Positions 25,374-59,914 of a DNA stretch of 64,000 bases are shown piece after piece. The notes beneath the pieces were generated by a model. The model was not told where the DNA came from. It saw only the letters and a list, made by a program, of their open reading frames with translations, and made no database searches. This stretch comes from Eledone cirrhosa (lineage: Eukaryota), in contig OZ024743.1 of NCBI GenBank assembly GCA_964016885.1, forward strand, positions 33,852,001-33,916,000, given 5' to 3'. The first letter of the stretch is position 1. Each line of letters begins with the position of its first letter. Both the position numbers and the translations under genes were made by a program.

Positions 25374-28300
25374 AAACATCCAGGATATGACAGCTAAAAG
25401 AAGAGAAAGCTATTACTTTCTGTATTGATCACAAAAGGATGAAAGACAGAATAGACCTAAGTGAGATTTCAACTCAGAACGCTGGAGATCTCAAACAAAA
25501 ACTCAATGCTCTAACATGTCTGCCAAATCAACCACCTTACTCATTATAACACACAACTAATAATTAACAATTGAAAAAAGTAATTACACTGACAAAATGT
25601 GAAGAAAGTGTTGATGATGTAGATATAGGCTATATTCACATGATAAAATTAAGATATATATAATAGGAAAAATACTTGTAGAAACAGACTTAACCCATTA
25701 GCATTTAGAACATTGCCCCCATCTATAATTTAGATACTCATGAAGACTTTTAAATCCCAGGATTAATGGCAATATTCCACATTTTCACATTGCCAATCAT
25801 AGAACTGCTGAGTTAACCCTTTTACATTACTCTATATTTACTATTATATTTTCATGGTAAACACTTTACCTCACATAATTATCTCACATAATATCAAATC
25901 TATGAGATTTTGATATTATTTATTTTGAGAACATCTGTATGAGTGGCCAGTTATGACCAGTTTGAACAGAAAGGGGTGAGAGAATTCTGGCCAGATATGG
26001 CTGGTTTAAATGCTAAAGAGTTAATAAATTTTGACTATAGTAAATAAAAAAACTAAAACAAAACTCAGTTGATTCTAAACATTTAAGGATTTCAATATTT
26101 AAAAGTTAAAAAAATAATTACACTCTACTTTGGTTTGAAGTAAGTATAAAAATACTGCAGAACTTTATTTCATCATCATCCTTTTACGTCCGCTTTTCCC
26201 TGCTTGGAAGCGTGGGACGGGTCCTATTCAGCACAGCATCTCTCCACTTGTCACGGTTCTTTGTCATCTCCTCTGTGAGCTTCAGCGATCTGATGTCTGC
26301 TCTCACCACCTCCGCCCATATTTTTCGTGGTCTTCCTCTACTGGGATTTCTTGGCACTTCTTTATCCAGCGGTCATCCTCCATGCACATCACATGTCCAT
26401 ACCATCGCAGTCTTCTCTCCCACACACTACAACTTATTCCTCTTATACACAGTTTCTCTCTCAACTCATCCATGCTTGGTCATTCACGCACATTGATATT
26501 GCATGTCCAACGGAGCATGCTTGCTTCATTTCTCTTCAGCCATCGCATATCCTCTGCAGTTACTGCCCATGTCTCACTACCATGCAGCATTGCGCTCCTC
26601 ACACAGGCATCATATAACCGGCCTTTCGTATGCATGGAGAAACCCTTCTTTGTCAACAGAGGAAGCAGCTCCCTAAACTTTTTCAAACCCATCCTTATTC
26701 TAGATACTATGGCCTCGGAACACCCGCCTCCCATGCTAATCTGATCACCTAGGTACCGGAAGCTATCAACCACTTCTATAGAACCCACCTGCATTTGAAA
26801 AATGAGTCTATCACTGTGACTTCTACTGTCAAATTTCCCTGTACATCTACTGCATACATAGTTTTCTCATACATAGTTTGCCTGCTATTCTACTACATCT
26901 CTTGTGTACCCAAGATCTGCATTGTGTACATTTTATAGAATTTATGCCAGTTCCTTTTCTACATATTGAACATGGCCATTTCTCTGATGGAATCAGAGTT
27001 TTGTCTTCTTTTCTACTTATTGACACTTTTGTCTTAGCTAGGTTCACTCTCAGTCCTCTTGATTCCAACTGCTGTTTCCATAGCCAGAATTTATTCTCTA
27101 GCTCCTCTACTGATTCTGCTATAAGAACCAAATTTTCAGCATAGAGAAGTTCCCATGGGCAGCCAGTCTTAAACTCCTCTGTTATGGTTTGGAGGACTAT
27201 AATGAACAAGAGCGGGCTGAGGACCGAACCCTGATGTACTCCTACTTGTATCTGAAATTCCTCACTAAACTCCATTCCTACTATCCTTTTACTGACAGCA
27301 CCTCTGTACATAGCTTGCACTGTCCTCACAAGCCATTCTTCTACACCTAGTTTCCTTAGGGACCACCAGATGACAGATTGGGGTAACTTATCAAAGGCCT
27401 TCTCTAGGTCAACAAAAGCTAAGTATAGTGGCTTATTCTTCTCTGAGAACCTCTCTTGTAGTTGTCTCACTAAGAAGAGGGCATATGTTGTACTTTTCCC
27501 AGGCAGAAAACCAAACTGCATCTCATCTAATTTGACCCTTTCTCTAATTAATTGCGCCAATATTCTCTCTGCCACTTTCATAACCTGATCCATCAGTTTT
27601 ATGCCCCTATAATTGCTCCTCTCCAGAGCATCTCCTTTACCTTTGTAGCAATTTATGAGAATACTTCTGCACCAGTCTTTGGGTATGACACTGCCATATA
27701 TAGCTTGATTGATGATGCGTGCAACCTGTTTAGTGCCTACTTCTCCTGCTGCCTTCAGCATCTCAACAACTATCCCCAACGGTCCAGTGGTCTAACCATT
27801 TTTCATTTCCTTAATTGCCTCTTGGACCCTATATTCGTCAATCTCAATAGCTGGTCCCTCTGTCGGGTCTACTGGAGGTAATTTCTCTCTCTCCCATTTG
27901 TTCTCCACATTCATTAGTCTCTCATAATGACATTTCCAGGCCTCCTTCTTCTGATCATTCGTGACACTAAGTACACCAGCATCATTTTGGACATACTTAT
28001 CTCCAACAACATGTTGATTTACACCGACACACTGCCTCGCAATGCGGAACACCGCGTGTCTCTGATCTTGCTGTCGCAGAACATTGGCAAACCTACTCTC
28101 AGCCTCCCTGCGTGCTAAGTACACCTGATGTCTTGCTTCTCTCTTAGCGGCTGTGTATCAGTCTCTACTCCCACCATTTTTCCAAGTATTCCATGCTAGT
28201 CTTTTGTCTCTAATGGCACTATCTACCATGCTGTTCCACCACCAGGTCACTTTCTGTCTAGTCGGAGCTCTGCTCCAGCCATAAGTTTCTTTAGTAGCCT

Positions 28301-31300
28301 GCAGTAAGTTGTCACATAAGAAATTCCAGTTATCATTTATGTCATATGATTCTAAATCGTCTTCTTTTTCGTCATACACATTTTGAAGGGCCTTCCTAAA
28401 TTTGTATTTTAATGAAATGTCTTTTAGCTTCCAGACCTTCCTTTTCCACACCTTCCTATATGTCTCATTTTGTCTCTTGCTTACTGAGATGTCACTAATG
28501 ACTAACCAATGCTGTGGGGTACATTCTTCCCCGAGATATGCCTTAGTATTTGACACCATATGTTTGTCTCGCTGCCTAACTAGCAAGAAATCAATCTGGC
28601 TTATGTGCTCACCTGATTTGTAGGTTATTAAGTTGTTGGTAGGTTGCTTTAAGGTAGTGTTGCAAATGGTTAGTGCACTTGCATTGCATCACAAAATTCA
28701 AGAAGCCTCACTCCTTCTTCATTTTTTTTAGCCATAACCGTGCCCACCATGTACCCCAGTGTATCCATCCTGGAGCTGTCCAACATGACCATTGAAGTCC
28801 CCTGCTAGCATAACGATGCCTCTGTTCTCTGTCATTGTGGCTGTTTCTAAAAGTTGTCCATAAAAGCAGTCTTTCTCTTCTTTACCTAGGCCTGCGTGGG
28901 GAGCATAGGCAGAAATGATTGTCAGCAGTCTCTCGCCTACAACAATCTAAGCTTAATTATTCTATTATTAACTCGACCTACCTCTATTGTTTTATCGATC
29001 CATCTCTCAGCCAGTAAAATGCCTACCCACTTAACCTATCATTACCCACCCAGAAAAGCTTGTAACTAAGATATTTGCCTGCGATTAGTCTCACTGAGGC
29101 ACCTCTCCATTTCACCACTTGCACGCAGCACCCATCCACATGCTTTCTCTCTAGCATCTCCCCTATCTCACCAGATCTACCTGTTAGAGTGCCAACATTA
29201 AGTGTGGCAACTCTGAGATGCGACGTCTCAGTGTTTTATCTGTCTAGTGTACCAACTATAAGCTAGCCGGTTGGTAAACAAGTGACTTCATTCAGTTGAA
29301 AACATGTAATTCATTCAGTGTAACATATCATGTAACCTATTATAAGCTAAGGAATTTATTGACATTTGAATACAACAATTGACTTTCATAATTTTAGCTT
29401 CTTTGTGAATCAGTTACTGCTAGATATATGACATGAAATGTCAAGTTCTATCAAACAAGGTGAGAAATACCAACAGACAAAATTGGATACAAATTTTGTT
29501 TTCTTCATAATATGCAGCAAATATACTTTATCATCTTAACATACAGTCAAAATATTTTTCAGCTACTTTGATTCTCCTTTTCTTTGTTATCATAGGTCGG
29601 GATTCCAGACAGGGCACTTTGTCACCACGAAAATCACCATTACCACCAAAGCTCTCTCCAAAAGAGATTGATGTTCTTCTGAAGGTAGATTATACTTTTG
29701 TTTTTACAATTTCTACTTACTCATATCTTCTAATTTCTATTTATAATAGTATTTCTCTCAGGTTTTGTCAAACCTGTACAATCATCATCATCATCATCGT
29801 CTAACGTCCACTTTCCACGCTAGCATGGGTTAGACAATCTAAATTATTATTAAATATACATATAATAGCTACTACTATAGGTAAAGGTGTATGTTATGAT
29901 TGTGCTGCTTCGATAATCATAAAAATTCAAACATATAAATACCATTATAACAAATTTTTCAGTATAACAACATTTTTTTCAATCCCTGGACAAACGCTCA
30001 ATGTGTTGGGTCGATCTCGTTATAAAGAATTTTTCGTTACAACAAATTTTTTTTTTATACCCTGTGAATTTTGTTATAATGGAATCTCACTGTTTTCAAA
30101 GAATATATATTCTTAGGAAAGTGCTTGTACCTGAATATATGAATGTACAGGTGTTTATGTTGAGGTATCTTGTCGTGTTTTGTAGACTACAAACTTTGCT
30201 CGTACCTCCAAAATAAAGCCTTTGGAATACTTCCTTTCTGTCAGTTATATTAAATGCTTATAATATAAAAAATACATTTTTGCATACACAGAAAGTTTTT
30301 ATTTATTTATTTATCTTATTCTTATAACCATGTGTATCCAGTTTTGAATAGGTACAACATGTCACTGCATGTTGTAAGAAATGACTAAAAGAGTTGGTGT
30401 CTGGAAGGGCATTACCTCAAATGTCCTTTTCAACCAATTGCAATCGATGCTAGCATGGAAAAATTGATGTAAAAATGATGAGGATATATTTTTAATAAAA
30501 ATATAACTTAAATACATTTAGTTATATTTAGAATTAAAAGGTCTGAAAGTAAACTTAGTCGAAACTAAAGTTCTAGTGAGTAGGAAAAATAAGACCCTTA
30601 TCCTTCAGGGAAGTGGACCTGCTCCATATGTAGAAAAGGAGTATGCATAAACTCCATATTGATGTACACAATGTAAATCTTGGGGAGACAAGAGGTGTAG
30701 TAGGATAACAGGTAGTCTAACAGGAAAGGAAAACTTTGTATGTAGAAGATGCACAGGAGGAATCAAAGACAAGATAGGCAGTGATATAAACCTCTTCAAT
30801 TCACAAGAAGGGTCCATAGATGTGGTTGATAGCTTCTGTTATCTAGGTGACTTCATTAGCTGTGGAGAAGGGTACTTTCAGGTCATAATAGCAAGAATAA
30901 GCATAGGATGGAAGAAATTTAGAGAGCTACTCCCACTGTTTACAACAAAGGGTTTCTCCCTACGTACAAAAGGACAAATGTACGCTTGCTAAAAGTATTT
31001 TTCTTTTATTTATACTAAAATATTAATATGCTACAATTGAGGTATTTAGCATTTCAAACAACTTATTTTTATGTAATATAAGCTCTGTTCAATTTACTCT
31101 ATGTATTATACACTTCACAATTCTAAGACATGAATTTTACCCAAAATGTTACTGACCCTGTATAGTGTAACTATTTGGAAAACAGAAGACTGCTTTATAT
31201 TATTCACAGACAGCAAACATTGGAATTCCCTATTCTTAGTTTATGTACAAAGAGTGATGCTAAGTTTCTGCTCAGATTGGCTATATATTAGAGAGGAGTA

Positions 31301-34300: not shown

Positions 34301-37300
34301 TATAGATATTTTTAATTGAAGGTTAGTGAAAAAAATTCATCAAAATCTTCTCCATCTGAGTCTAGCTTGTTAAATGGTGATCTCAGTTGACTCATCTGAT
34401 TAGTCATAGTTCTATATTTGCAGTGTTCATAGCGATTACTTAAATATATTATAGACTGTTAAAATGTGAACATTGTTTATGGTTCATACTTCTACAAAAT
34501 ATGAATACTTCAGAAAAATATAAATAAAATGATTCAAGTTTCAAAGATTGTTGCTATTATTATAATATAATTTAGTCTATACTTTATCATAAGTAGGTTT
34601 ATGTTTATTCTTTTAATTTTGGCATTAAATCTCCTAAATTTCTCTTTTCCTGTTCCTCTTACTTGATAGTTTTTTCTTCCCCTTTTTTAAGACATAATTT
34701 TAATTTGGCCTAACCAGTGTGCTTAAAAAGACGAATTCATTAATAATTTGTTACCAGAGTATTATATTATTTAATCTACAACATCAACAAGCATTTTAAG
34801 GACATTTTCCTCATTGAAGCAGGATTTAGCCTTGTGCATCCCATGACATGGGATCCTCTTTGAGACAATATTTTACAGCTAGAAGTTTTTCCTGACCAAA
34901 CCTTTTAGTTACCTCTTACAACATGGTGTACCTATTGAAAACTGAATACACATATAATATCACTTTAATCTATTTGAATAAAAAATGTCTACAAAAAACA
35001 TTCTATTTATTCAATAACTGAAAAGTATTTTTAAAAAAGTAAAAGGTACAGCCAATCTTACAAAGAACGATAATTTAATTATAGACAATATTGAATTGTC
35101 TACCTTGAAAGACTATCTACTGTAGACATATCTGCTAACATCAATTATGTGATTATGTTAGTATTTGTTATTTTCCAAAACTTATTATAGTCACTGAACT
35201 GACTAAAAGGTATTTTATGTGGCTGAAAATGCTATTTTCTTTCCAAGCTAAAGAGTAAGAGATCTTTATATGATTTCAGAACTTGCATATAATAATTGTT
35301 TCTACTTTTGGCACAAAGCCAGTAATTACCCAGTACATTACTGGTACTTTATTTTATCGATTCCGTAAGGATGAAAGGCAAAGTTGACCTCAGCGAGATT
35401 TGAACTCAGAATGGAAAGGGCCATAACTCTATGCGTCAAAGCATGGTGTCTGACCCTCTACCCATACTGCCAATCCACCACCCATATAATAATGAATAAC
35501 TCCTCTTTCACCAATAATGTTTTAACCAGGTAAACTTCAATATATTATATAAAGAGACAACACACTGCAGAAGTGGAAGCTATTTTCAACTCTTAATACT
35601 ACCATGTTTATAAATAAGATTAAATTTTAGATCTTTCAAAATGCTATCTGTAGATAATAAGAGGTCTTCTCTCATAATATGTTCACTTAGTAAATGATTA
35701 GTTTTTAAAATGAAGATTGCTTTAATTTTTCCATTTTGCTATTTTCATTCATATCTCACCAAATCTCTTAATTCTTCATCATAATGGCTGTATGACCTTA
35801 TTTTAAAAGCTATGAGCTGTTTTTATACGCATAGTATTGTAATTTTCAATTTTAAAAAAGAAATATCTAGACCAATTTCTATATAGAATAAGAAAGTTCC
35901 ATAGGATGTAGTAAAGTTCACTCTCAACAGAAGTGAATAATTTTTATTGAGTAAAAGTTGATTATTGTTTAAGAACTAAATGTGTTCTAAGTGTAATCTC
36001 CACATATACTTACCTAAAGACTTAAAAAGATATCTGTCAAATGTTACTGATAACTATCACAATTCTCCAAATGAACACAAAAATACTTATATGTAGGGTA
36101 ATGTTTTTCAAACTGGAGAGAATAACATAAGAAAGTTATTTCAGCTCTAATTAAAGTAAGATATGTTACACACTCTAATCAGAAATACTATTATTGTTGA
36201 TCAATGAGCTGCGAAATAAGTTAGTCAACCTCGTAATTTATTTATCTGCTGTTCTTAGCTACTTCTTTCTAATCAACAAAAAACATAAATCACGGATCTT
36301 AAAATATTTCAGACCATTTGACCTTTCATGTAATCCTTGACCCTCATAGACCCTAGACATATACAAAAATAAACAAGTAAATAAATAAACCAGTAAACAG
36401 GGTATAAAGTAAATAGACAATAAAACTAATTATTTATAAATCAGAAACTTTTATAAATAAGTTGCATTTTATTGTATTATTTTATGTATTTTTGTTTCTT
36501 ATACAAATGTCAAGCTTTTGTCCAAAAGTTCAGTCAACACTCTTGGTAGTCATATCAAACTCTCGGGGTCAATATCATCAATGTTAGGGACTAGTGACTT
36601 AAATGATCCCTAATATTAGCTGTTTAAATTATTAATGAATAATTATTAAATAATACTGGAAAAGGTATTTTATTTTTATAAGGTTCTATACTTTTTTAAA
36701 AGCAGTAGTCCTGGTGTCACGACAAAGAACATCCTGTCCACTCTGTAAGGTAGTAGTGCCAGAGTCAATATAAAATGTTCGCAGTGCATGTTGTAAAGTA
36801 GTTTTTGTTTGGAAGGGCATCCAGCCATAGAAACCAAGCTAGAAGCATATGTGAGCAAGATGTAGTCACCCGATCCATCTTGCCTCAGTATGTGATAGCC
36901 TGCCTAACACATGCGAGCATGAAAAATAGACATTAAATAGTGATGATGATAATATCTACATTGTACACTAATAAGATCAATATCTTTATCTTCATAATTT
37001 TGGACATTCTAGAATAGTACTTTAATTTGGTGTATAATATAGTAGATTTATATTTTTTAAGACTGCATCAGATATGTAGACATCTTTTAAAATATGTAAC
37101 AATTAAAATGAAATGATTCAAAGGCATTTATTGTGTATAGTTTTTTTTTTTTTATTAATAATTTGGGGAGTGGGTGGGGGAAAGGCAATTACCATGAAAT
37201 TTTATTTTTTCAAGGTCTCTGATACTGGTGGGAGGGAGTAAGTTATCTTGGCCACAATACTTGCCAAGTGGTCTTGTTAAACTGAGCAGCAGATTAAGTC

Positions 37301-47200: not shown

Positions 47201-48176
47201 AGGTCGCAAAAGATCCTCAACCCAGGTAAGTGATAGAAAATGTGAGGTAATAGGCTCTGTGTGTTTGTCCATTTTATATACATACACACATATATATATA
47301 TGTATATAAAGATTACAAACACATAGACACACACATACTCACACACACATGCATACACACACACACACCCACACATAAGAACAACATTAAAAAAGATGCT
47401 GATATTACATAAATTGTTTATTCATTATGATTATTTCAACGGTTCCTTTATGAAATTCACAATGTAACGTATTCATTTGTTATTGGTATGGGAATGGTAT
47501 CTTCAGATGAAAATCCAATTACATGATATGTCGCAGGCAAAAAAATAATTTTTCTTCTTGCTTGCCTGGCAGATATATGTATATATATATATCCACACTG
47601 TAAACGTGGTTGGTGTTAGGAAGGGCATCCAGCCATAGAAAACCCGCCAGACAGTCCTATACGAGCAAGATAACCAATCTTGCCTCAAGTGGGAAAACTC
47701 CCGTCCAAACCCATGCAAGCGTGGAAGATGGACGTTAAACGATGATGATGATATATAATTAGGTTTGTTGGTTCACCACTGGATAGAACTGGTCATTCCG
47801 TATAGTCAACCTCGATGTAATATTATGGAGAGCACTCGACGTAATGCAACTCACCCATCTTCGTTTGTGTTGTTGGTGGTGCAAGTACGGAGTTAATTAT
47901 TATAAAATAAAAGGAGATTGGACTGGTGTAATAATTCCTTACAGGTTTATTATACTATGAACATTTCAATGACCGAGTTCAGTATAAATCCGGTGACATC
48001 ATCAGGTATTCGAAATTTAACAAAGGAATATAATAGACAAAATCCATGGAGCTGAAAAGCAGAGACAGGAAGGCGGCCGAATAATTAGCAGCTTCTAGCC
48101 CGGTCAGCCAGCCGGTCACTGAAATGATCATAGTATAATAAACCTTTTAAGGAATTACACCAGTCCAGCCTCCTGT

Positions 48177-48208
<32 letters not shown>

Positions 48209-48505
48209 CATCATCGTTTAACGTCTATCTTCCACGCTAGCATGTGTTTAGATGGGAATTGTCCCACTTGAGGCAAGATTGGTTGTCTTGCTCGTATACG
48301 ACTGTCTGGCAAGTTTTCTGCGGTTGGATACCCTTCCTAACACCAACCACGTTTACAGTGTGGACTGGGAAGTTTTTACCGTGTTACCTACACAGCCACA
48401 TTACAGCGTGGACTGTGTTTTTTTTTTTTGTCGTGACACGTACACGACCTCATTTAGGATGGATGTTGTGGTACCAACATAACTTTACAGAGAAAGGGGT
48501 GGTGT

Positions 48506-48544
<39 letters not shown>

Positions 48545-51500
48545 ATGTGTAACTCTTTAAATTTATACACACATACATACAATGCATTTCCTATATCAGT
48601 CATATTGCTACAATAACAATTTTGCTTCTAATCACAAGGCCTTGAGCTCTAATGTTACACTTTCCCCTCTGAAAATAGTTATTTCTCTAAAGTTATTCAT
48701 ACATATAATCATGTATGTCATTTGTACATATATGCCAAACATTTATGTTATTATATTATAGATATGAGTTATTAAGATATCATTTATATCTTTAATCACT
48801 TCCACATGTCAGTAATCTTCATAAATTCTAGGCTTTCTTTTATATAAATTCATTTATCAAAACACAAATTTCCCAGTTTGTTCAATTGTTCATATATTCG
48901 GTAATCCTGATATATTTGACATACTAATCCTGGATTTCCAAAATTAAACATGTTCAATGCTATTGCCATCATTGATGATGGTACAAGGTCATTAGTTTTA
49001 AAGATTACTTCGACAGAGTCCCCCGCTCCATTATCTGGTGGGCTCTTAGAAAACTAGGCGTTGACGAATGGCTTGTGAGGGCTATACAAGCCATGTATAA
49101 AGAAACAGTCAGCAAGGTTAGAATTAACAACGAATATAGTGAAGAGTTTAGCGTAAAAGTTGGCGTCCATCAGGGCTCTGTTCTCAGCCCCCTACTATTT
49201 ATTATTGCCCTTCAGGCTATAACAGAGGAGTTCAAGACAGGCTGCCCATGGGAACTCCTATACGCAGACGACCTGACACTCATAGCGGAATCAATGGCCG
49301 AGCTAGAGAAGAAATTCCAAACATGGAAGCACGGCCTAGAGTCAAAAGGACTTAAAATTAACCTGGCTAAGACCAAAGTTCTAGTTTGTAGGAAAGAAAA
49401 CAAGGCGGCGGTCCCTTCTGGGAAATGGTCGTGCTCGGTGTGTAGGAAAGGCGTAGGTAGAAACTCCATTTTATGTCCTAAATGCAAAGTATGGGTGCAT
49501 AAAAGATGTAGTGGGATCACAGGTAAGCTAACTAAGAACATAGATTTTACATGTGGCCTGTGTTCTGGTGCAATAAGTAGCAGCAAGTGCCCACAAAATA
49601 CTAGCTCTTTCAATTGCGCAGAGGGTTCTATAGAAATAGTGGACAGCTTCCGTTACCTGGGCGATAAAATCAGCAGTGGGGGAGGGTGCTCTGAAAGTAC
49701 TGTAGCTAGAGTCAGAACTGGTTGGAAAAAGTTCAGAGAGCTTATACCACTATTAGCTGCTAAAGGGTTCTCCCTAAAAATGAAAGGCAGGTTGTACGAT
49801 GCCTGCATACGAACAGCAATGTTGCATGGCAGTGAGACCTGGGCATTGTGTGCAGAGGATATACGCAGACTAGAGAGGAACGAAGCTTGCATGCTCCGCT
49901 GGATGTGTAACAGTAATATACGTGAACGGCAAAGCATAAACGAACTAAGGAAAAAATTAGAGATAAGAGGGATCAGATGTTGTTTACTCGAGAGAAGGCT
50001 ACGTTGGTATGGACACGTGATGCGCATGAAAGTCGATAGCTGCATAACAAAGTGCAGGGCAATAAAGATAGACGGTAGCCACGGAATAGGCAGACCTAGA
50101 AAAACCTGGGATGAGCTGATAAACTCCGACCTCACACACTTACACCTCTCCAAGACAATGTCACTGGACCGAGACCTTTGGCGGTACTCAGTAACAGAGA
50201 AGACCCGCCTTGCCAGTAGGCATCTCTAACAAAATACACCCTGTCCCGCCACAACCCCCACCCCATCCACACCACCCCGTTCTATGTAAAGTTATGTTGG
50301 TGCCGCGCCATCCAGGCCGAAACAAATGAGATCGTGTAGGTGTCACGGCAAAAAAACACACAGTCCACGCTGTAATGTGGCCGTGTAGGCAACACGGTAA
50401 AAACCTCCCAGACCCACACTGTAAATGTGGTTGGTGTTAGGAAGGGCATCCAGCTGTAGAAAACCTGCCAGACAGTCCTATGCGAGCAAGACAATCACTC
50501 TTGCCTCAAGTGGGACTACCCCCGTCTAAACCCATGCAAGCGTGGAACACGGACGTTAAACGTTGATGATGATGATGATTACTGTAACACATTTACACAT
50601 TTAACCCTTTAGTATTTACATTGCTCTATATTTACTATTGTATTTTCGCAGTAAAGGATTTATCTCACATAATATTAAATCTAAGAGATTTTAATATTAT
50701 TTATTTTGAAAATAATACCTTAACATCAGTATGAGGGGGCCTGATATGGCTGGTTTAAATGCTAAAAGGTTAACACATATATATTCCAAACACACTTTTA
50801 TATAATTACATTTAACATACATAAAAAGGAAATGAGTCCATCATCAGATCAGACCAAGAAAACAATGTTTCCATTGGTTTTTCCATTGCTGATACTATCT
50901 ACTTGTGGCATCTCCTGACCGAAGGAGGTGAGATTTGAACTCAGAATACACAGAACTGAATCATACACTACAGAACATTCCTCTCTCTCTCTTGTAAGAC
51001 TGTGGATATACACTTAGGTGTTGCCTTAGTCAGTGTTGTGGTTGTCGAGTCTCACACAGGAGTGACAATCTTGGCTGCAATAAATGTATTTGAAGGTGCT
51101 GCCAGTTTTGTCTTGGTGCTGTTTATTTTCAATAATCCACCTTCCTTCCTATCACTCTATCCTTGTATCACACCATCTGTGTTAGGAGGGATGGCATTGG
51201 AACTATTTGTATTCAGCCCTGCAGCACACACTACAATTATCTCCACTCTCACACTACAATTATCTCCACTCTCACACTACTTCTTTATCTAACACTCAAA
51301 TTTCTATCTCTGGGGCATCTGATTGACACTGGATATAGCAAGGCTACAAAAATGTTCATTTACATGAACATTTCATATATGATTCAATATATAACCCCAG
51401 TCTGTTATGTATATATATATAGATATGTTTCTTGTATCTATCTATCACCATGTGTGTGTGCGTGTGTGTAGTGTATATATATATATATATATATATACAT

Positions 51501-54500
51501 ACACACACACGCACACACGCACACACACACACGGTGATAGATATAGATACAAGAAACATAGGGAGACAGATACACGACACCATTAGCAGAGAATATTTTC
51601 AAACATATGCTCCCTTGCTTGTACTTTACATTTGTGTTGCATGAATTCTACATTGAAAAATGTTTGAATATTTTTGACAGAGTATAACTTTTGTGTGTGA
51701 CAGACCAGACAGAGACAACCCCCCCCCCCCAAAAAAAAAAGAATTGCACAGTATATTATACATTTTGGTTGTTTTTTTTAGACGCTAATGCAGCCTTGAA
51801 GGAATTCCTATTGGCAAGAAACCCGAAACAACAACACTCTTGCACTTTAGAGTCATTTTTAATTAAACCGATCCAGCGAATTTTGAAATATCCACTTTTA
51901 TTACAACAGCTGTGCCAACTGACTGATCCAGAGACAGACGAACATTACCATCTCTCAGGTAATTATAACATTTACACTCTTTCTTTACCATATTTCTATT
52001 GGAAAACATTAGTTTTGAATTACCATATTCTATTATAAAACACTGTATCAATTTTGAAAACAATCAAGAATCTGGAGGAATTTAACCCTTTCTTTACCAT
52101 ATTTCTTATTAAATATTTATTTCAATTAATTACTGAAGAATTTTAAGTGATTCACTCAAATTAATTATTTCATTACTTAACATATGGTTCTGATATAAAA
52201 TTATGTTGGAAGATTTTAATATAAATAGGAACACTTTAAAATGAGTGTTTTGTTTTCTAGAACCAGAGTTGTTTTGGGGTGGGTTGGTATCAAAAGTGTT
52301 AATAAAATAACTAACCTTTTCATTATCAAACCAATGTTTATAACATAACAAGTAGAACACTTCTTACATATATATTGATGCCTGAAGGTTTTGATTTAAA
52401 TATGAACACTTTATGTATCATTGGGATTGTATTTAGAAAGAGGTTAAAGCACTCTTTAGCTGAATTCATTTACAAAGCTAGAATTATGCAGTCATATAAT
52501 AATGAAATAATGAAAATTATTGTGTACAGTGCTCAGGTGCACTACACCTCATCAAAGGTACATGTATAGTACAAAGGTGCAAATAATGTACAAATTTCAA
52601 TATCTATTTCTTTATGTTGCCACATTAGATATTTTGTTTCTTGAAATGCTTTATACTGAATAGTAAGATTGAAATATCAGAACAGTATAGTAAAATAGCT
52701 TTGTATATATATTTTACAACAGAGGCCCTTCGTGGAATGGAAGCTGTAGCAGAACATATCAATGAGATGCAGAAAATTTATGAGGAGTATGGTTACTCTT
52801 TCGATGAACTATCTCGTATGTACAAAGAACATCATCCACACAATAAAGTAAGTTGTTAAAATTATGAAAGTACATGTTTTAACATTTAGTGATTCATATT
52901 TCTAACAAAGGATATACTATCATTGTGTATTAATTATAAAAACTGTTCAGAATTATGAGGTGTTTAATGAAATAACATCAACCTAATAATGGTTCCTAAA
53001 TTAGGAGCAAGCCCAGAAATCTTTGGAGGCGGAATGAGTTAATTACATCATCCCAGTACTTGACTGTTAATTTATTTTATTGAGCTCTGGAAATGTGAAT
53101 GTCAACTGTGGTGGGATTTGAACACACAATGTAAAGGGCTGTAACTGAATGCTGTGTGGCATTTTGTTTGACGTGCTAATGATTCTGCTAATCTACCACT
53201 CTAATTTCTAATTTGGTAATAAAAAAAAAAGCAAGTATTTAATTCTTGAAATCTAATATCTCTCATGTAATAAGATATCAGCCCAAGATTTAAATTGAAG
53301 TTTTGACAGTTTATTAAAGGTGGTTTCCAATGGGATGATTTTTAACCCTTTAGCATATAAATTGGCTATATCCGGCCAGAATTCTCTCACCTTCTTCTGT
53401 TCAAACCAGCTGTAACCAGCCACTCATACTGATGTTAAGGTATTGTTCTCAAAATAATTAATATCAAAATCTAATAGATTCAATATTATGTGAGATTATT
53501 ATGTGAGATAAAGTGTTTAGTGTGAAAATATAATAGTAAATATAGAGTAATGTTAATACTAAAGAGTTAAAGTGTTAATTACCATTAACTGTATAAAAGT
53601 TGCATTTAAAGCAATTATCTTTCTGGCCACTTGATAGTGCTCTCTACTTCTCCCATCCTTGGAAAGTATGGCAGGATGGGGGAAGTAGAGAGCACTATCA
53701 AGTGGCCAGGAGAGATGATAGGCGACAAGTGTACCTTGCAAAAATGGTAGCAGAGGATAGAAAGTTCAAGCATGTTCTGCAACGTGAGGACCAAAAACGT
53801 GAGGTGTTCAGGATTGCTAGACAATGTGTCAAGGAAAACCGTGATATTGTCGGAGAGAAGTGTGTCCGTAATGATAACAGTGTACTTGCGCTCACTGATA
53901 CTGATAAGAAGATAGCCTGGAAGTGTCACTACGAGAGACTATTAAATGAGGAGAATAAATGGGAAAAAGATAGTCTGCCCCAAATCGATCCAATAGAAGG
54001 ACCAGCAGTGCAAGTTAAAGGTAGTATAATAAGTAAGACAATCAAAGATATGAAGACAGGCAAGGCAGCTGGGCCTTCGGAGATAGTTGCTGAGATGTTG
54101 AAGGCATCTGGTATGGTGGGACACACTATGGTCACCCGTATAGTTAACCAAGTAATACAGAATGGGATCATATCGAAAGACTGACATGGCAGCATCATCA
54201 TTAACTGCTACAAGGGTAAAGGGGATGCTCTATAGAGGTATTAAGTTAGTTGACCAGGTAATGAAGGTCACAGAAAGAGTTATAGCGCAACTAATCAGAG
54301 AGCGAATTGATCTAGATGAAATGCAGTTTGGTTTTGTGTCAGGTAAAAGTACCACAGACGCTCTTTTCCTTGTACGACAACTACAGGAGAAGTACCTAGC
54401 TAAAAGTAAACCCCCTCTACTTAGCTTTTGTAGACCTGGAGAAAGCTTTTGACAGAGTCACCTGCTCCATTATCTGGTGGGCTCTTAGAAAACTAGGTGT

Positions 54501-57500
54501 AGCTGAATGGCTTGTGAGAGCTATACAAGCTATGTGAAGAATTTAGTGTAGAAGTTGGCGTTCATCAAGGCTCTGTCCTTAGCCCCCTCTTATTTATTAT
54601 TGCCCCTCAGGCTATAACAGAGGAGTTCAAGACTGGCTGCCCATGGGAACTCCTATACGCAGATGATCTAACTCTCATAGCTGAATCTATAGCTGAACTA
54701 GAGAAGAAATTCGAAACATGGAAGCATGGCCTAGAATCAAAAGGCCTTAAAGTTAACTTGTCTAAGACTAAAGTTCTAGTTTGTAGAAAGGAAAATAGGA
54801 CACATGTGCACTCAGGGAAATGGCCATGCTCAGTGTGTAGGAAAGGAGTAGGCAGAAATTCCATTTTATGTCCCAAGTGCAAAGTATGGGTACATAAAAG
54901 ATGTAGTGGGATCACAGGTAAACTATCTAAGAACGTAGACTTTATATGTGGCCAATGCTCAGGTGCAATAAGTAGCAAGTGTCCAAAGGATACTAGCTCC
55001 TTCCATTGCCCAGATGGTTCTATAGAAATAGTAGACACTTTCCGTTACCTGGGTGACAAGATCAGCAGTGGTGGAGGGTGCTCTGAAAGTACAATAGCCA
55101 GAGTCAGAACGGGATGGAAAAAGTTCAGAGAGCTTATACCGCTGTTGGCCACAAAAGCTTTCTCTCTAAAAATGAAAAGCAGATTGTATGATGCCTGTAT
55201 ACAAACAGCAATGCTACATGGCAGTGAGACATGGGCATTATGTGCAGAGGACCTGCGTAGACTGGAAAGGAACGAAGCATGCATGCTCCGTTGGATGTGT
55301 AATAGTAATATACGTGAACGGCAAAGCATAAATGAACTAAGTGAGAAATTAGGAATAAGAGGGATCAGATGCTGTTTACTTGAGAGAAGACTACGTTGGT
55401 ATGGTCACGTGATGCGCATGAAAGACGACAGCTGTATAAAAAAGTGCAGGGCGATCAAAATTGATGGTAGTTACGGAGTAGGTAGACCCAGAAAAACCTG
55501 GGATGATCTGATAAATTCCGACCTCACACACTTACATCTCTCTAAGACAAGGTCACTGGACCGAGAGCTTTGGCGCTACGCAGTAATACAGAAGACCCGC
55601 CTTGCCTATGTACAAAGCGAAACCTACAGTCAATAGGCACCTCTTAACCAAATATACACACCAATCTACTACCCCCTACCCTATCCTCTCACTCCCACCA
55701 ACAGCACGAGAAAATGAGATCGAGTTCGTGTAGGTGTCACGACAAAAAACACACACAGTCCACGCTGTAATGTGGTCGTGTAGGTAACACAGTAAAAAGT
55801 TCCCAGTTCTACACTGTAAATGTGGTTGGTGTTAGGAAGGGCATCCAGCCGTAGAAAACCTGCCAGATAGTCCTATATGAGCGAGACACGGTCACCCGAC
55901 CAGCCTTGCCTCAAGTGGGACAACTCCCGTCTAACCCATGCTAGCGTGGAAAACGGACGTTAAACGAAGATGATGATGATAATGTTATTCCATACCTGCC
56001 CTGGCTAACTGAACAATATTAACTAATGAGAGAGCCACTACACAGTTGTTCTATTTGCTAGGAATAGCAGTCAAGTCTGTCTACATTTACATCTTACTAT
56101 CATCATCATTTCCTTTTAGCATCAATTCTTCCATGCTTGCATGGGTTAGACAGGTCGTCCATGCCAGGGAACAATTCTGGCCATAGTTGGCCATGTCACA
56201 CTTTGCTCCAGCAAAGTGTGACATGGTTTGGTAAGGTATTTTACAGCTGGATGCCCTTCCTAACACCTACCACATTTACAGCGTGGGACTTTCTATCTTT
56301 AAATAAAAAAAAGAAAGAAGTATTGGATTATGTAGACTGAGATAAAATATATTAAATGCCAAAATGACCATGGTCAGAATGCTTTTGATCAAAAGTCTGC
56401 TAGGTTGGGGCTGATCTAGAGCTAAACAACAGGATTTTAACAGTAGAATGGAAAGACATGTAAGCTGTAGTTATAACTGGATTTCTTTCTTTCTTTTTTT
56501 TTTTTTTTTTTGGTTCTTCATTCATTCATACTTATATACATATGTATTTGTATTCATCCTGTCACATTCACTGTGCTGTACCTGGGGCTAAAACTTACAT
56601 TGGTTGAGCCCACCTCATTAAAGTAGTTTACCACTGTAAGCAACACTAGCAGTCTAAAAATTTACAACAGTTTTAAAGCTTTCGGTGCTGAATTTAGTCC
56701 CGCCAGTGGGTTTGTATAAGATAAGGGGAAACCACTCTAGGGTCTCCCTTCATTAACCCTTAAGCATTTACATTACTCTATATTTACTATTATATTTTCA
56801 GAGTAAGGCTTTTACCTCACGTAATATTGAATCTATGAGATTTTGAAATTATTTATTTTGAGAACAATACCTTAATACCAGTATGAGTGGTCAGTTACAG
56901 CTGGTTTGAACAGAAAGAAGTGAGAGAATTCTGGTTGGATACGGTTAGTTTAAATGCTGCAGGGTTAAAGTACTTCATTCCAGGATCAATAGAATTTGGG
57001 GATAAACCACTACAATTTACTGTTGTATGGTGAATACAATATATATGTAAAAATATATCCTTTAAAGAAATATAAACAAAGCTTAACTATGTTATATTAT
57101 GTGTTATAATAATTATTTCAAGTATTTTCCTGTGGTACTTTCAATGTATACACTTTTAATTGAACTTAATACTCTAGCAACATTATTTCTTTTTACTAAA
57201 GTATAATTCGGGATGAAATCTTCATATAATATATTCTATTTTCAGCCGGTAGACTTGAGTGTTGGAGAACTGCAAATGTATGGGACAGTGCAATGGTGCA
57301 ATGCTATAGACTTCCTTGGGAAGATCAAGAAAGGGACAGACCTGGAGAATGTTGTGTTCGTTTTTAAAACTGGGATTGTCTTTCTGTGCCGTGAGAGGGT
57401 GAAGAGAAAATTAAAGAAGGTAAATAATCGACTATGATTTATTAAAAATATCTATTAAAATGTTCTGGAAGTCATAGATAACAAGGGATTCTTCTCATTT

Positions 57501-59914
57501 CTTCTTACAGAATAATAACAACAGGAATGCTCCAATGTCTGAGGGCTATGACGCCATACCCCGTTTCCGCACCCTCATTCCAGTACATGAGGTGCAAGTT
57601 GTGAGCGGCTCACGGGCAGATTGTGAGAGGCACTATTGGTGGCAGCTAATCCATTCCAAGTCTGAGGTAGAAGGCCGGCCAGAGAGGCTGTACCAATTTT
57701 GCAACTGGTAAGTTGATACCAATAATATAAATTTGTTTATATGCACTAGAATGAACTAGAGTGTTAGTAATGACAACAAATTTAAGTTTATTTTAAATAT
57801 GAAAGTCAATTAATTACACTGGGGAGAATAAATGGAAATTTGCTATTGTATATACAACTTAGAATACAATGGTATTCTATGATCTTTATGGTACTTCTTA
57901 CTACTTTCTTTGCTTGATTCATTGACTTGAAACCCCTTAATTTCTATAATTGTGTATCTTAATTAACTGACAATGGCGCTACTGACAGTTGCCTGCAATG
58001 ACACTCTTCCTAGATGCTTTGACTAAGAAGACAACATGTATGAGACCAACCAAATCCAATGCTTTCAACATCTCAGTATCTATTGCTGAAGGTCATATTC
58101 CTTACCCTGTCTTTGTGTTCTCAACGCTTCACTTCAACCTGTCTGAAACAACTCTTGAAACAACAGATATAAGATAATCTGTTTTAAAATGTTCATATAT
58201 AAATTTAAAATATTACCTCATAATTTTATGTGAAAACCCTTCATTAAATCATACGACAAATTCTAGCTTGGTATACCAATTAATTTGAATCCCTTAAATT
58301 TTTTGATTATCTTAAAGATTAACTGACATCTATTTCATTTAAAATAAGGTTATGAAAGGGTTAAGTTGCTTTACACTAATTTGTTGTCAACAACTGATCA
58401 CTGTTTTCTTTCATACAAATTAGATTCTCTCTCCACCTCATTTATAATCTTTGTTCAATACCTTTTAACTGTAAACTCAGAAAATATATTTTTCTGTTTA
58501 ATACTAAAGTATAGTATTTATTTTGGTGATTTCTGGAATATCTTGGAATTGTTAAATTTTTACTTACCATAAATGCGAAATACTTAATTGAGTAATTAAT
58601 TAAATGATCTGAATTCATTAAGAAATGTAATACAGGGAACATGTTACAAGTATGGTATCATCTGTATATAAATTTGAGTGACTTCCGTCTGTCACGCAAT
58701 GCGTGTGAATGTATGTGTGTGTAAAAGGAAGGAAGGGGATGGTGAAAAAATATAGAGCAAAATAGCGACTGGCGTTCCATTTGCTACGCTGTGTATGTGT
58801 ATGAATGTATGTGTGTATTTGTTTGTGTGCATGTATGTGTATTTGTGTGAATGTATGTCTGTGAATATGCATTTTTTAAAGTGTGTCTATGTTTGTGCGT
58901 TTATATTTATATACTCATACATATAAATGTATGCATATGTATATACATATACACGTTGAAAAAATCCTAGTATATTTATATTTTCTAGGCAATAGGTATT
59001 ATTTTAAATGAACCTGCTCACTAGAATTACAAAATATTGTAAAAAAATAATATCAAAATGATTGTGAAACATTACATATATTATTAATTCTTATGTTATT
59101 GGTGCCATATTTCTTTAAATATACTTTTATTTTTTGTGTGATACTATTTAAAATGTTTTCACTTATATTTCATCTTTTGATTTTCTTTAGCACATCTGAG
59201 GCTAAAACGGATTTCATGAAAGTTATCAGACAGACTATTAGAGACAGTGTTCGAAAAATGGCTGTGCCATCTGCACGCCAGACTGCCAAAACCAAATACA
59301 TTCCATTTGGTGGTAAGCGACTTGAGTGTCTAGGGTCAAACCCACGCACTCTCAGTAAGATGCGTGGTGGGTTAAAGGCTCCAGAGACGGAAAGACACTC
59401 TGTGGATTTTGAGGAAAACTTCAACAACTGCGAGTACGACAGCATGTTTAGGACAAGAAGCAAGACAATAGGCAACCTAAATGAGGTGGCACAAGGAGAA
59501 GACAAGAATGAGAAAATAGCTGACCAGGTACCAGCCCGACCAGCTTCATCTATTGCTAACCCTTATAGCACGGCGCCTCATGGAATGTCCAGTCGGCATT
59601 TAAGAGCCGCTGGACGAGAGCAGTCTAGTTCTAGGCCAACCTCGCCAAGGCCCACCAGTGGGTCCCCAGTTTGGAAACCACGCCAGGACCCCAGTGGCTT
59701 TGGCATTTCAGGTACAAACAAACCGGGGACGCCAACACAAGTTCTGCCCTCACATGCTGTTGCCAGTGCACTAAGCAGCTCTGAGGCTTCAACACCAACC
59801 ACATCGTCAGCATACGGAGATTACTCTGATGTTGTCTACCGGGCTGATACCCCTAGTCGGGTAATCACGCACCAGCCCTCCCATTGCATCGCCTACAAGG
59901 ACACTGAGTGCTGA
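8269..59914 (+). CDS. sif: Still life/TIAM1-TIAM2-like Rac guanine nucleotide exchange factor, 5'-partial, 12 coding exons (RBD-PDZ-DH-PH-C-tail), about 843 aa in window
   Basis: Exons 8269-8427, 10560-10740, 24820-25077, 29596-29684, 31836-31979, 33361-33555, 47117-47225, 51782-51958, 52723-52847, 57246-57419, 57511-57707, 59191-59914 all have AG/GT boundaries with matching phases (total 2532 nt, open frame). Peptides [74 protein letters not shown] and [11 protein letters not shown] match the TIAM1/sif DH domain as I recall it. Confidence 0.93.
8811..8935 (+). mobile_element. tRNA-derived SINE (family A), partial
   Basis: ggtggtgaattggcagaatc...gttcaaatttcactgaggtcaactttgcctttcatcc. Confidence 0.7.
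9142..9358 (+). mobile_element. piggyBac-type MITE family 1
   Basis: TTAACCCTTTAGCATTTA...TAAATGCTAAATGGTTAA. Confidence 0.85.
9590..9830 (+). mobile_element. MITE family 2, degenerate copy
   Basis: aaccctttcattcccaaatttct...tatcatagaaacagg resembles the 52082-52302 copy. Confidence 0.5.
10007..10351 (+). mobile_element. MITE family 1 copy interrupted by a CR1-like 3' end (about 10070-10235)
   Basis: MITE halves flank tgaaattattgtgtacagtg...tcaggaagcatgg, which matches 5178-5357. Confidence 0.75.
10560..10740 (+). CDS. sif: sif/TIAM exon: end of RBD and N-terminal half of PDZ
   Basis: cccttcag|AAA...AAAG|gtgatt; [10 protein letters not shown]...EFGFRVEAE...[15 protein letters not shown]; phase 0-1. 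Confidence 0.9.
10890..14070 (+). mobile_element. RTE-clade LINE, 5'-truncated (APE endonuclease, RT with internal PHD finger), frameshifted, (GAT)n tail
   Basis: ORFs with [40 protein letters not shown] and WYGHVMRM; tail tgatgatgatgatgatgatg at about 14051-14070. Confidence 0.95.
14466..18399 (-). mobile_element. Near-full-length RTE-clade LINE (about 3.9 kb including about 0.5 kb putative 5' UTR), disrupted by a few frameshifts and stops
   Basis: GTMNVG...CCVQETRW endonuclease start at about 17860, 553-aa RT ORF 14898-16559, (CAT)n tail at left end, probable TSD ATATCRTCATC at 14455-14465 and 18400-18410. Confidence 0.92.
18401..20075 (-). mobile_element. RTE-clade LINE, 5'-truncated, second subfamily
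   Basis: ORFs 19667-20113, 19121-19624 and 18689-19099 ([24 protein letters not shown]); catcatcacc tail at about 18403. Confidence 0.92.
20525..22979. repeat. Tandem segmental duplicate of 17004-20528 (RTE 5' part, RTE tail and flank) with indel differences
   Basis: Identical ORFs offset by 3521 nt (17120/20641, 17665/21186, 18114/21635); only a few substitutions seen. Confidence 0.95.
22735..22846 (+). mobile_element. 5'-truncated family A SINE inserted into a family B SINE, with TSD attatattcttagt
   Basis: ttcaaatcccgccgaggttgactttgcc...tagaaacaatt; the empty site is present in the duplicate copy at about 20392-20405. Confidence 0.8.
23059..24249 (-). mobile_element. Decayed mariner (Tc1/mariner) DNA transposon, about 1.2 kb
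   Basis: TA-flanked imperfect TIRs (tatgagggggttcaaaaagttccagggctagtt / aactagcctggaaactttttgataacaccttgta); ORF 23482-24066 [19 protein letters not shown]...SGRP; out-of-frame [11 protein letters not shown] near 23300-23340. Confidence 0.9.
24820..25077 (+). CDS. sif: sif/TIAM exon: C-terminal half of PDZ
   Basis: ctaacag|GG...CCAG|gtaatg; [28 protein letters not shown] (PDZ GD-x-I-x-x-NG motif); phase 1-1. Confidence 0.9.
25813..26024 (+). mobile_element. piggyBac-type MITE family 1
   Basis: TTAACCCTTTTACATTAC...TAAATGCTAAAGAGTTAA. Confidence 0.85.
26171..29290 (-). mobile_element. Near-full-length, older RTE-clade LINE (third subfamily), many disablements
   Basis: ORFs 28158-28586, 27792-28124, 26847-27779 and 26480-26794; endonuclease start ([11 protein letters not shown]) at about 29180-29220; (CAT)n tail at 26171. 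Confidence 0.9.
29596..29684 (+). CDS. sif: sif/TIAM exon: Pro/Ser-rich linker
   Basis: catag|GT...CTGAAG|gtagat; [30 protein letters not shown]; phase 1-0 bridges the neighbouring exons. Confidence 0.8.
30530..30985 (+). mobile_element. RTE LINE internal fragment (PHD region to FRELLPLF)
   Basis: aaggtctgaaagtaaacttagtcgaaactaaag...ggatggaagaaatttagagagctactccc. Confidence 0.8.
31836..31979 (+). CDS. sif: sif/TIAM exon: start of DH domain
   Basis: ttcag|AAT...GTGAAG|gtaaaa; [10 protein letters not shown]...[23 protein letters not shown]. Confidence 0.93.
32420..33040 (-). mobile_element. Expander/Rex3-like RTE LINE endonuclease fragment
   Basis: [22 protein letters not shown] and [13 protein letters not shown] motifs in ORFs 32801-33028 and 32444-32761. 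Confidence 0.8.
33361..33555 (+). CDS. sif: sif/TIAM exon: DH domain
   Basis: tgtgcag|GAC...TTTCGG|gtaagt; [14 protein letters not shown]...[20 protein letters not shown]. Confidence 0.95.
33905..34120 (+). mobile_element. tRNA-derived SINE family B (related copies at about 7650-7780, 22520-22920, 38480-38730, 45690-46010)
   Basis: A-box-like tagtggttag, B-box-like gagtttgattccc, then tgtgaccttgagcaagaaacttta core. Confidence 0.65.
35292..35482 (-). mobile_element. tRNA-derived SINE family A, full length
   Basis: Reverse complement aligns end to end with 40033-40215. Confidence 0.85.
36700..36950 (+). mobile_element. RTE 3' UTR-derived fragment with GAT tail
   Basis: ggtgtcacgacaaa...ggaagggcatccagccatagaaacc...gatgatgat. 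Confidence 0.7.
37675..37689 (+). CDS. Candidate alternative 15-nt microexon (DEELR) in the DH domain
   Basis: Polypyrimidine tract with TGC, then ctag|GATGAAGAACTCAGG|gtatgt; phase 0-0 fits the intron 33556-47116. Confidence 0.55.
38945..39150 (+). mobile_element. MITE family 2, degenerate copy
   Basis: ttaaccatttc...tggtatcaaaacggttaa termini. Confidence 0.55.
40033..40215 (+). mobile_element. Young full-length tRNA-derived SINE (family A) with 20-bp TSD
   Basis: TSD attattggttctctactatg at 40013-40032 and 40216-40235; B box gagttcaaatccc; core gttgactttgcctttcatcc...gtcgataaaataaagtacc. Confidence 0.9.
41802..43059. mobile_element. Non-autonomous pogo/Tc1-type DNA element with an internal minisatellite
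   Basis: TA-flanked TIRs taccatatatacttgaatataaactgag / ctgcttatattcgagtatatattgta; subterminal tcagcttata repeats. Confidence 0.75.
42236..42560. repeat. 29-bp minisatellite, about 11 copies (TTTGGAGGTGAATATTACACCGGTTTCAC)
   Basis: Head-to-tail units read directly, no spacers. Confidence 0.95.
43092..43292 (-). mobile_element. piggyBac-type MITE family 1 (reverse orientation)
   Basis: TTAACCCTTTAGTATTTAAACCGGCCATATCCGGCC...TAAATGCTAAAGGTTAA. Confidence 0.85.
43981..44088. repeat. (TA)n/(GA)n microsatellite (others at about 236-300, 4365-4430, 25330-25370, 44170-44232, 48182-48207, 48508-48545, 60598-60652)
   Basis: Direct reading. Confidence 0.95.
47117..47225 (+). CDS. sif: sif/TIAM exon: DH domain
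   Basis: ttacag|CGT...CCAG|gtaagt; [36 protein letters not shown]. Confidence 0.95.
47593..47752 (+). mobile_element. RTE 3' end fragment inserted at (TA)n
   Basis: ccacactgtaaacgtggttggtgttaggaagggcatcc...gatgatgatgat. Confidence 0.85.
47753..48184 (-). mobile_element. Penelope-like pseudo-LTR remnant with about 72-bp inverted arms (47902-47975 / 48113-48184)
   Basis: Inverted repeat read directly; hammerhead-like core and AATAAA on the minus strand; no coding remnant seen. Confidence 0.45.
47952..48009 (-). ncRNA. Candidate minimal type I hammerhead ribozyme (degenerate)
   Basis: Minus strand: atac-CTGATGA-tgtcaccgg...tcggtcatt-GAAA-tgttca-TA-gtat. Confidence 0.45.
48207..48507 (-). mobile_element. 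RTE 3' UTR fragment inserted in (TA)n
   Basis: atcatcatcgtttaacgtc...cccttcctaacaccaaccac...; flanked by (TA)n on both sides. Confidence 0.85.
49010..50576 (+). mobile_element. Young 5'-truncated RTE LINE with an uninterrupted RT-PHD-C-terminal frame and TSD GATTACT
   Basis: 384-aa ORF 49075-50229; TSD at 49003-49009 and 50577-50583; (GAT)n tail. Confidence 0.95.
50601..50773 (+). mobile_element. piggyBac-type MITE family 1 (internally deleted)
   Basis: TTAACCCTTTAGTATTTA...TAAATGCTAAAAGGTTAA. Confidence 0.8.
51424..51560. repeat. Near-perfect palindrome centred on (TA)n
   Basis: tatgtttcttgtatctatctatcaccatgtgtg...(TA)n...cacacacggtgatagatatagatacaagaaacata. Confidence 0.85.
51782..51958 (+). 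CDS. sif: sif/TIAM exon: DH domain
   Basis: ttttag|AC...TCAG|gtaatt; [43 protein letters not shown]. Confidence 0.95.
52082..52302 (+). mobile_element. MITE family 2 (TTAA-flanked), intact reference copy
   Basis: TTAACCCTTTCTTTACC...TGGTATCAAAAGTGTTAA; related fragments at about 32015-32185 and 45390-45550. Confidence 0.7.
52496..52595 (-). mobile_element. CR1-like LINE extreme 3' end
   Basis: tgaaaattattgtgtacagtgctcaggtgcac matches 5178-5240. Confidence 0.65.
52723..52847 (+). CDS. sif: sif/TIAM exon: end of DH domain
   Basis: caacag|AG...AATAAA|gtaagt; [24 protein letters not shown]. Confidence 0.93.
52990..53200 (-). mobile_element. Degenerate SINE family A
   Basis: cccagtacttgactg...tgggatttgaac...gattctgctaatctaccac. 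Confidence 0.55.
53342..53570 (-). mobile_element. piggyBac-type MITE family 1 (reverse orientation)
   Basis: TTAACCCTTTAGCATATAAATTGGCTATATCCGGCC...TACTAAAGAGTTAA. Confidence 0.85.
53623..55980 (+). mobile_element. 5'-truncated RTE LINE with a fold-back inversion at its 5' end (same subfamily as 14466-18399)
   Basis: ORFs 53600-54184, 54162-54452 and 54758-55636; (GAT)n tail at about 55968-55980; 37-bp inverted copy at 53623-53659. Confidence 0.93.
56100..56290 (-). mobile_element. RTE 3' UTR-derived fragment
   Basis: catcatcat...ccatgcttgcatgggttagac...gctggatgcccttcctaacacc. Confidence 0.65.
56753..56968 (+). mobile_element. piggyBac-type MITE family 1
   Basis: TTAACCCTTAAGCATTTACATTAC...TAAATGCTGCAGGGTTAA. 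Confidence 0.85.
57246..57419 (+). CDS. sif: sif/TIAM exon: C-terminal PH domain, first part
   Basis: tttcag|CCG...AAGAAG|gtaaat; [16 protein letters not shown]...[13 protein letters not shown]. Confidence 0.92.
57511..57707 (+). CDS. sif: sif/TIAM exon: C-terminal PH domain, second part
   Basis: cttacag|AAT...AACTG|gtaagt after a 91-nt intron; [13 protein letters not shown]...[21 protein letters not shown]. Confidence 0.92.
59191..59914 (+). CDS. sif: sif/TIAM terminal coding exon: PH end and low-complexity tail ending KDTEC*
   Basis: ctttag|C ACA TCT GAG GCT AAA ACG GAT TTC ATG AAA GTT ATC AGA; phase 2 matches the previous exon; YIPFGGKRL motif; TGA at 59912-59914. Confidence 0.9.

Follow-up and report, generated by a model that had tools for sequence, protein, structure and literature searches.

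A PHD zinc finger inside the reverse transcriptase of an apparently undescribed branch of RTE-type LINEs

The RTE clade of LINEs is defined by a single ORF that combines an APE endonuclease with a reverse transcriptase (RT). In other LINEs, those of CR1 and L2, PHD fingers have been described in ORF1 or N-terminally in ORF2, and the ORF2 proteins of LINEs have been characterized as structurally constrained (PMC4120745). Within the RT of R2, contact with the target is made by loop 6a: H673 and K675 of R2Bm read an upstream target motif, deletion of 6a blocks nicking (PMC10499050), and in vertebrate R2 the loop also wedges into the target DNA (PMC11601368). The PHD finger of Pygo holds H3K4me in a cage made of W366, Y341, D352, V350 and A356, presents an acidic histone face and binds a partner protein via its back (PMC2726290). 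DNA binding has been described for the basic PHD of BAZ1A, in which a basic pair is insufficient for it (PMC5636791), and for a cross-brace finger of piggyBac (PMC5861402). For octopus RTEs, PMC9115989 mentions the single ORF and reports a 'potentially active' element in Octopus bimaculoides.

We show here that an RTE element of Eledone cirrhosa carries a PHD finger within its RT. The window, that is, the whole 64-kb stretch of DNA that was analysed, holds at 49008-50579 (+) a 5'-truncated copy of the youngest PHD-bearing subfamily, which comprises RT, PHD, thumb, C-terminus, 3' UTR and tail and is 98.9% identical over 1572 bases to a full-length copy, L011. A 7-base target-site duplication lies on its left (49003-49009, +, with two bases overlapping the element's start), and the same seven bases recur at 50577-50583, into which the (GAT)n tail runs (50562-50583, +; sequence and L011 comparison). 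The frame that contains the finger spans 416 codons. The original prediction had worked from an ORF start at 49075; this is not the start of the element, which is truncated at about 49008. On the plus strand, the RT catalytic motif YADD (49261-49272; Pfam RVT_1, 71 bits) is followed by the motif 6 strand KTKVL (49369-49383; strand E133-135 in the model), which is the final RT element ahead of the insert, by a variable linker 1 (49384-49425), by the finger itself, which runs from residue 150, an aromatic, through the last of its eight zinc ligands (49426-49563), by a variable linker 2 that returns into the RT hairpin (49564-49629), and by motif 7, FRYLG (49648-49662; sequence, alignment and model), after which the thumb and C-terminal region extend to the stop at 50229. 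The finger thus lies between YADD/KTKVL and FRYLG, as had been predicted.

The module of 46 residues that separates motif 6 from motif 7 is a zinc finger of the PHD type. Its ligands (C152, C155, C166, C169, H174, C177, C192 and C195) have the Cys4-His-Cys3 spacing that was originally recognized, and Pfam PHD (PF00628) gives the finger alone 31.5 bits, above the curated cut-off of 24 and above rival zinc fingers, the next-best profile being C1_2, which covers just the first 31 residues with 27.1 bits (cut-off 26). Searched as whole RT frames, the sequences yield both RVT_1 and PHD; five of the six RT-bearing frames that reach the finger score above 24 bits (25.7-30.7), and the frameshifted one scores 19.9. 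The AlphaFold2 model of the RT frame has a mean pLDDT of 88.8, with 87-95 over the finger. Modelled on its own, the finger is weak (pLDDT 72), and its structural matches are mostly PHDs but likewise weak (Foldseek best E 0.26; VIA, Z 2.5, rmsd 3.5, 38 residues aligned). The best PHD match in the PDB is the Pygo PHD (E 7e-7). A chance pattern, a C1 or RING identity, capture of a host gene at one locus and an assembly artefact are excluded by the Pfam scores, by the invariance of the ligands in 104 sequences and by the copies found genome-wide.

Relative to PHD-less RTE RTs the protein has 64 extra residues, so that the finger is indeed an insertion. In 117 of 120 sites the spacing from YADD to YLG falls within 124-135 residues, and in 67 it is exactly 128, as against 64 in the PHD-less protein; in the alignment the whole difference in length falls between KTK and the next hairpin, with RT and thumb aligning gap-free on either side of the insert. 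The RT-PHD model superimposes across the insert on L1 ORF2p (Z 13.6, rmsd 3.7, 333 residues aligned) as well as on R2 (Z 13.2, rmsd 4.4, 307 aligned). Since residue 135 of the query, at the end of the KTKVL strand, pairs in the alignment with R2Bm residue 666, the finger begins about 15 residues past the start point of 6a, and linker 1 occupies by sequence the place of H673 and K675 (PMC10499050). We infer from this correspondence that the finger, like loop 6a of R2, is turned towards the upstream target DNA.

Conservation was assessed in an alignment of the query with 103 of its best 120 matches (104 rows, 43-70% identity), the 17 left out being near-duplicates, fragments or broken rows, including two that fail the pattern. 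The eight zinc ligands are invariant (104/104). Averaged over columns, identity reaches 0.75 in the RT core, 0.68 in the finger and 0.66 in the thumb, as against 0.36 in each of the linkers. Among four subfamilies, represented by the majority codons of 29, 11, 7 and 7 copies of this genome, dN/dS is about 0.13 in the finger, 0.06 in the RT, 0.05 in the thumb and 0.43 in linker 2, values that are rough because synonymous sites are near saturation. The suggestion that the finger is under selection, for which a comparison of dN/dS between subfamilies had been proposed, is borne out by these values and by the invariant ligands, the selection being purifying. Within the finger, P151 (103 of 104 elsewhere) has become Ser in the youngest subfamily, and V159 is Thr in one subfamily.

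A Pygo-like pocket can be traced in the finger at positions 150, 159, 163, 164 and 172, which match Y341, V350, A356, I357 and W366 of Pygo by a pairing taken from the Pygo2 alignment (PMC2726290). Among the 104 rows, an aromatic residue (Y/W/F) is found at 150 in 96, V159 in 103, N162 in 103, Ser or Ala at 163 in 104, I164 in 96 and W172 in 103, and four of the five K4me pocket positions of Pygo have like residues in 96-104 rows. D352, which forms the acidic lip in Pygo, has no counterpart in the RTE finger, and no column of 148-185 holds more than 15 acidic residues in the 104 rows. The net charge is +1 to +12, with a mean of +6.3, in all 237 fingers from 240 proteins, and of the 104 rows 89 have a basic residue at 175 and 96 have one at 176. 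Given that the histone face of Pygo is acidic, the basic finger without an acidic lip disfavours binding of a basic tail. A complex prediction of the finger with the unmodified H3 tail of this genome and two zinc ions scored 0.10 against a mark of 0.34; the alignment was unused in it, and it counts neither way.

According to the original prediction, the finger pattern is present in every RTE copy that covers this region. In a six-frame scan of the 64 kb, the C4HC3 pattern (C-x2-C-x10-C-x2-C-x4-H-x2-C-x14-C-x2-C) gave four matches and no more, at 49432-49563 (+), 12917-13048 (+), 54827-54958 (+) and 15519-15650 (-); in these four copies the claim holds, whereas the remaining listed copies are decayed. 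The finger at 12917-13048 lies in a near-full-length copy (10887-14071, +; 93.8% identical to L011), and those at 15519-15650 and 54827-54958 lie in copies of an older subfamily (14461-17996, -, 82%; 53658-55984, +, 82.5%). A copy of a third subfamily (18711-20044, -; 76.5%) has one finger Cys changed to Trp at about 19.4 kb. Frameshifts interrupt the finger of a fourth-subfamily copy (26381-29216, -; 66.6%) at about 26.9 kb and of a decayed fragment (30529-30962, +) at about 30.6 kb. An eighth copy at about 6.5 kb, a fragment with a decayed finger (6493-7120, +), was missing from the original list; both fragments were delimited by the pattern scan and the comparison with L011. Usable copies in the window fall into four sequence subfamilies, not three as first counted.

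Other parts of the window were also noted. A local duplication with a spacing of about 3.5 kb joins 17120-18638 and 20534-22159, a 179-codon endonuclease frame and a 160-base tail fragment both occurring twice. Short fragments at 36713-36953, 47593-47752 and 48207-48505 match the 3' end of the element only; they may represent SINEs, or else truncated copies, with the tail in common. The remnant at 23482-24087 (-) is like the N-terminus of a mariner transposase (HTH_48, E 0.003, below the cut-off). A 287-codon open frame at 59051-59914 (+) has no Pfam match and is possibly a host exon; another frame without a Pfam match, at 5218-5664 (-), presumably resembles the C-terminal tail of another LINE type.

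Searching the 3.0-Gb genome with the RT-PHD segment gave 66,247 candidate places, of which 150 were scored, namely the copy in the window plus 149 that are 99% identical. Full-length copies have one ORF of 1103-1182 codons (20 of 20 copies chosen for long frames), in which Pfam finds the endonuclease (Exo_endo_phos), RVT_1 and PHD; no separate RNA-binding ORF1 was found among these 20, and no C2H2 finger was found by Pfam in the element. Because the finger sits in intact single-ORF copies that are nearly identical, it belongs to a recently amplifying element. The element has the traits of the RTE type: a single ORF with APE endonuclease and RT, a short tandem-repeat tail, which is (GAT)n in the copies examined, and a short target-site duplication, of 7 bases at the window copy. 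In four copies (L065, L067, L068 and L072) the finger is mostly or wholly deleted, with end points that differ among the four; in L065 the frame is still open and the deletion extends from one short repeat to another. These look like single decayed copies rather than an amplified PHD-less branch. At least three PHD-less RTE-like families are present in this genome (L066-L079), two of which served as controls. Since PHD-less families have also amplified here, the finger is dispensable for RTE mobility in general.

The finger extends well beyond this genome. A first protein search returned 2618 matches; among the best 120, the finger pattern fits 115 of the 117 with a recognizable YADD. Among 120 further matches listed by a search among longer proteins, 112 of 120 YADD sites fit the pattern, seven (P0173, P0193, P0220, P0223, P0236, P0239 and P0240) have a slightly longer spacing from His to the next Cys with every ligand kept, and the catfish protein P0168 is the sole one without a finger. 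With a looser pattern the finger is present in 237 of the 240 homologues listed by both searches. Named carriers are Hydractinia, Branchiostoma, Octopus bimaculoides, whose protein is 66% identical to the query, and the catfish Neoarius; Atlas clusters that combine RVT_1 with PHD come from Cnidaria and Mollusca, with very few records. Four proteins of the family (P0012, P0186, P0614 and P0615) are labelled bacterial, from Herbaspirillum and Thiodiazotropha genome bins, and are most likely animal DNA in those bins. A quick IQ-TREE analysis of 51 rows, with the insert excluded, one short row dropped, the carriers gathered by likeness to the query and no named Repbase references, separated the 44 carriers sampled from the other rows by a single branch (SH-aLRT 100, stem 1.0). 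Outgroups in this tree are few because searches with the PHD-less catfish RTE filled with copies of that one family. Nearest to the carriers are three PHD-less fish-like rows, which we take from their motifs to be RTE. A single gain of the finger would be the simplest reading of these sequences, in which it appears as the mark of an old, animal-wide RTE branch and not as a peculiarity of this genome.

The original prediction further raised the possibility that the finger steers target-primed reverse transcription. We compared the CpG observed/expected ratio of masked 6-kb 3' flanks, using a low threshold of 0.45 and dropping 22 of 160 windows as almost all repeat; among the evenly spaced 6-kb windows (L180-L219), 8 of 40 are almost entirely tandem repeat. 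The masked ratios split into a low and a high group. Values below 0.45 were found for 24 of the 34 flanks of young PHD copies and 20 of the 35 of older ones (44/69 together), compared with 6 of 20 and 8 of 18 in the two PHD-less RTE families (14/38) and 13 of 31 evenly spaced controls. PHD and PHD-less flanks differ (Fisher 0.009, rank 0.002; with a second masking 0.006 and 0.001). Against evenly spaced controls, with several tests run, the two maskings gave Fisher 0.05 and 0.09 and rank 0.17 and 0.09; young copies against the first 15 controls, 14 of them on the same chromosome, gave p 0.19-0.80; and PHD-less flanks showed no significant difference from controls. The flanks thus reveal a modest bias that is not robust against control windows. 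Steering by the finger is weak at most, and unlikely in a strict form; survival after insertion or a preference for TA repeats could yield the same CpG tilt. Methylation in octopus lies on the bodies of expressed genes and not on transposons (PMC9476566), so that CpG-poor flanks make a tilt to gene-body domains possible. A TA repeat directly follows the tail in 21 of 30 young copies, compared with 5% of control positions, and a TA repeat follows a TGA repeat at 6 of 140 control positions; this adjacency may be a target preference or tail slippage.

The reading we would favour, with somewhat less than an even chance in our estimate, is that the finger tethers the enzyme to the target nucleosome while target-primed reverse transcription proceeds. 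Pointing to the upstream target DNA in the manner of loop 6a, the finger would grip the DNA backbone with its basic face, and its pocket would accommodate a methyl-lysine from a histone tail, with H3K4me as the best guess. Such a tether would raise the efficiency of insertion with at most a mild tilt to active, methylated gene-body domains, and the local site, often a TA repeat, would likely be picked by the endonuclease together with the (GAT)n tail. A two-point grip on the nucleosome would best fit the combination of a conserved groove and a basic face. If the finger held nothing but target DNA, using its basic face in the way of the BAZ1A PHD or of loop 6a in R2, its pocket would be a relic or structural. 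Such a role would sit well with the net positive charge of 237/237 fingers, the basic residues at 175 and 176, the missing acidic lip and the place of the insert at loop 6a, but 159, 162, 163 and 172 in the groove are conserved like the zinc ligands, needlessly so for backbone binding alone, and the basic pair is not sufficient in BAZ1A (PMC5636791); we consider this reading unlikely. We also give a rather low probability to a role on the element's own side, in which the partner of the finger would be the RNA template, a region of the element's own protein or a protein of the host, and its task RNP assembly or processivity rather than target capture. The basic charge and the single ORF without a separate RNA-binding ORF1 in 20 full-length copies would suit this role, as would the partner-binding back of the Pygo PHD (PMC2726290) and an insert length so tightly fixed (128 in 67/120 sites, 124-135 in 117) as if it were packed on the enzyme. 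However, both linkers are variable (0.36 column identity), and R2 uses the stretch from motif 6 to motif 7 to contact its target DNA (PMC10499050, PMC11601368).

A palm-embedded reader of methyl-lysine on the target nucleosome, biasing insertion to active gene-body chromatin throughout an animal-wide LINE branch, seems to us doubtful though conceivable. That the finger directs insertions to a single chromatin mark as a true targeting reader is improbable: such a reader would agree with the Pygo-like pocket and with the CpG-poor flanks of 24/34 young copies compared with 14/38 PHD-less RTEs, but 10/34 young and 15/35 older flanks are not CpG-poor, there is no robust excess over control windows, candidate places number about 66,000 across the genome, and promoter H3K4me3 would predict flanks rich in CpG, the opposite of the observed tilt. 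That the finger is a neutral passenger tolerated in a surface loop might be suggested by the mobility of PHD-less RTEs and by the finger-deleted single copies (4/15 loci). Nevertheless, this is effectively refuted by a dN/dS of 0.13 and by eight ligands invariant in 104 sequences, and the finger has been kept from cnidarian to fish.

Kept inside the RT from cnidarians to fish, the 46-residue finger offers a direct handle for testing how nucleosomal DNA is engaged by LINEs that lack a fixed target. With tens of thousands of candidate copies, many of them with intact ORFs, the site choice of this family shapes the genome. The loop between motifs 6 and 7 accommodates a whole folded domain, as predicted by the model, which is relevant to the engineering of retrotransposon RTs. 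Should the finger read a histone mark and bias insertion by it, it would be a non-LTR counterpart of chromodomain-bearing integrases, and its position would lend itself naturally to grafts that retarget LINE-based gene-writing enzymes. As to novelty, which the original prediction had left unsettled, we found no description of a PHD finger inside an RTE RT in the full-text literature searched, where 'PHD' in PMC3849965, PMC9004415 and PMC3747384 proved to be a grant number, a thesis and a reference title; an earlier mention elsewhere, as in Repbase Reports, is possible. Automatic Pfam annotation of public proteins, on the other hand, already shows RVT_1 with PHD. The RTE LINE with a PHD finger in its RT is real, old and selected, and apparently undescribed.

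Like other RTEs, the PHD-bearing element has one ORF with APE endonuclease and RT, a short-repeat tail and a short target-site duplication, and the nearest PHD-less relatives sampled are the catfish family P0299/P0258 and P0420. Octopus RTE-2_OV differs in being described with a C2H2 finger and no PHD (PMC9115989). The Pygopus PHD (PMC2726290; PDB 4up0, 2vpe) is the best PHD match, with a K4me pocket alike at four of five positions; in contrast to it, the RTE finger has a shorter loop 1 without the Asp lip, lacks the long loop 2 and is net basic instead of acidic. The PHDs of CR1 and L2 are likewise carried by LINEs, and several match Pygo structures best (Table 1 of PMC4120745), but their place is ORF1 or the N-terminal end of ORF2, whereas the RTE finger lies inside the RT. 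Loop 6a, described as unique to R2, is short and belongs to a site-specific RLE element, in which it recognizes specific bases, whereas the RTE insert is a predicted folded two-zinc domain of a non-site-specific APE element. Without any claim that the inserts are homologous, both are insertions in the motif 6-7 interval of a non-LTR RT, and the finger is proposed to make a target-side contact there as 6a does.
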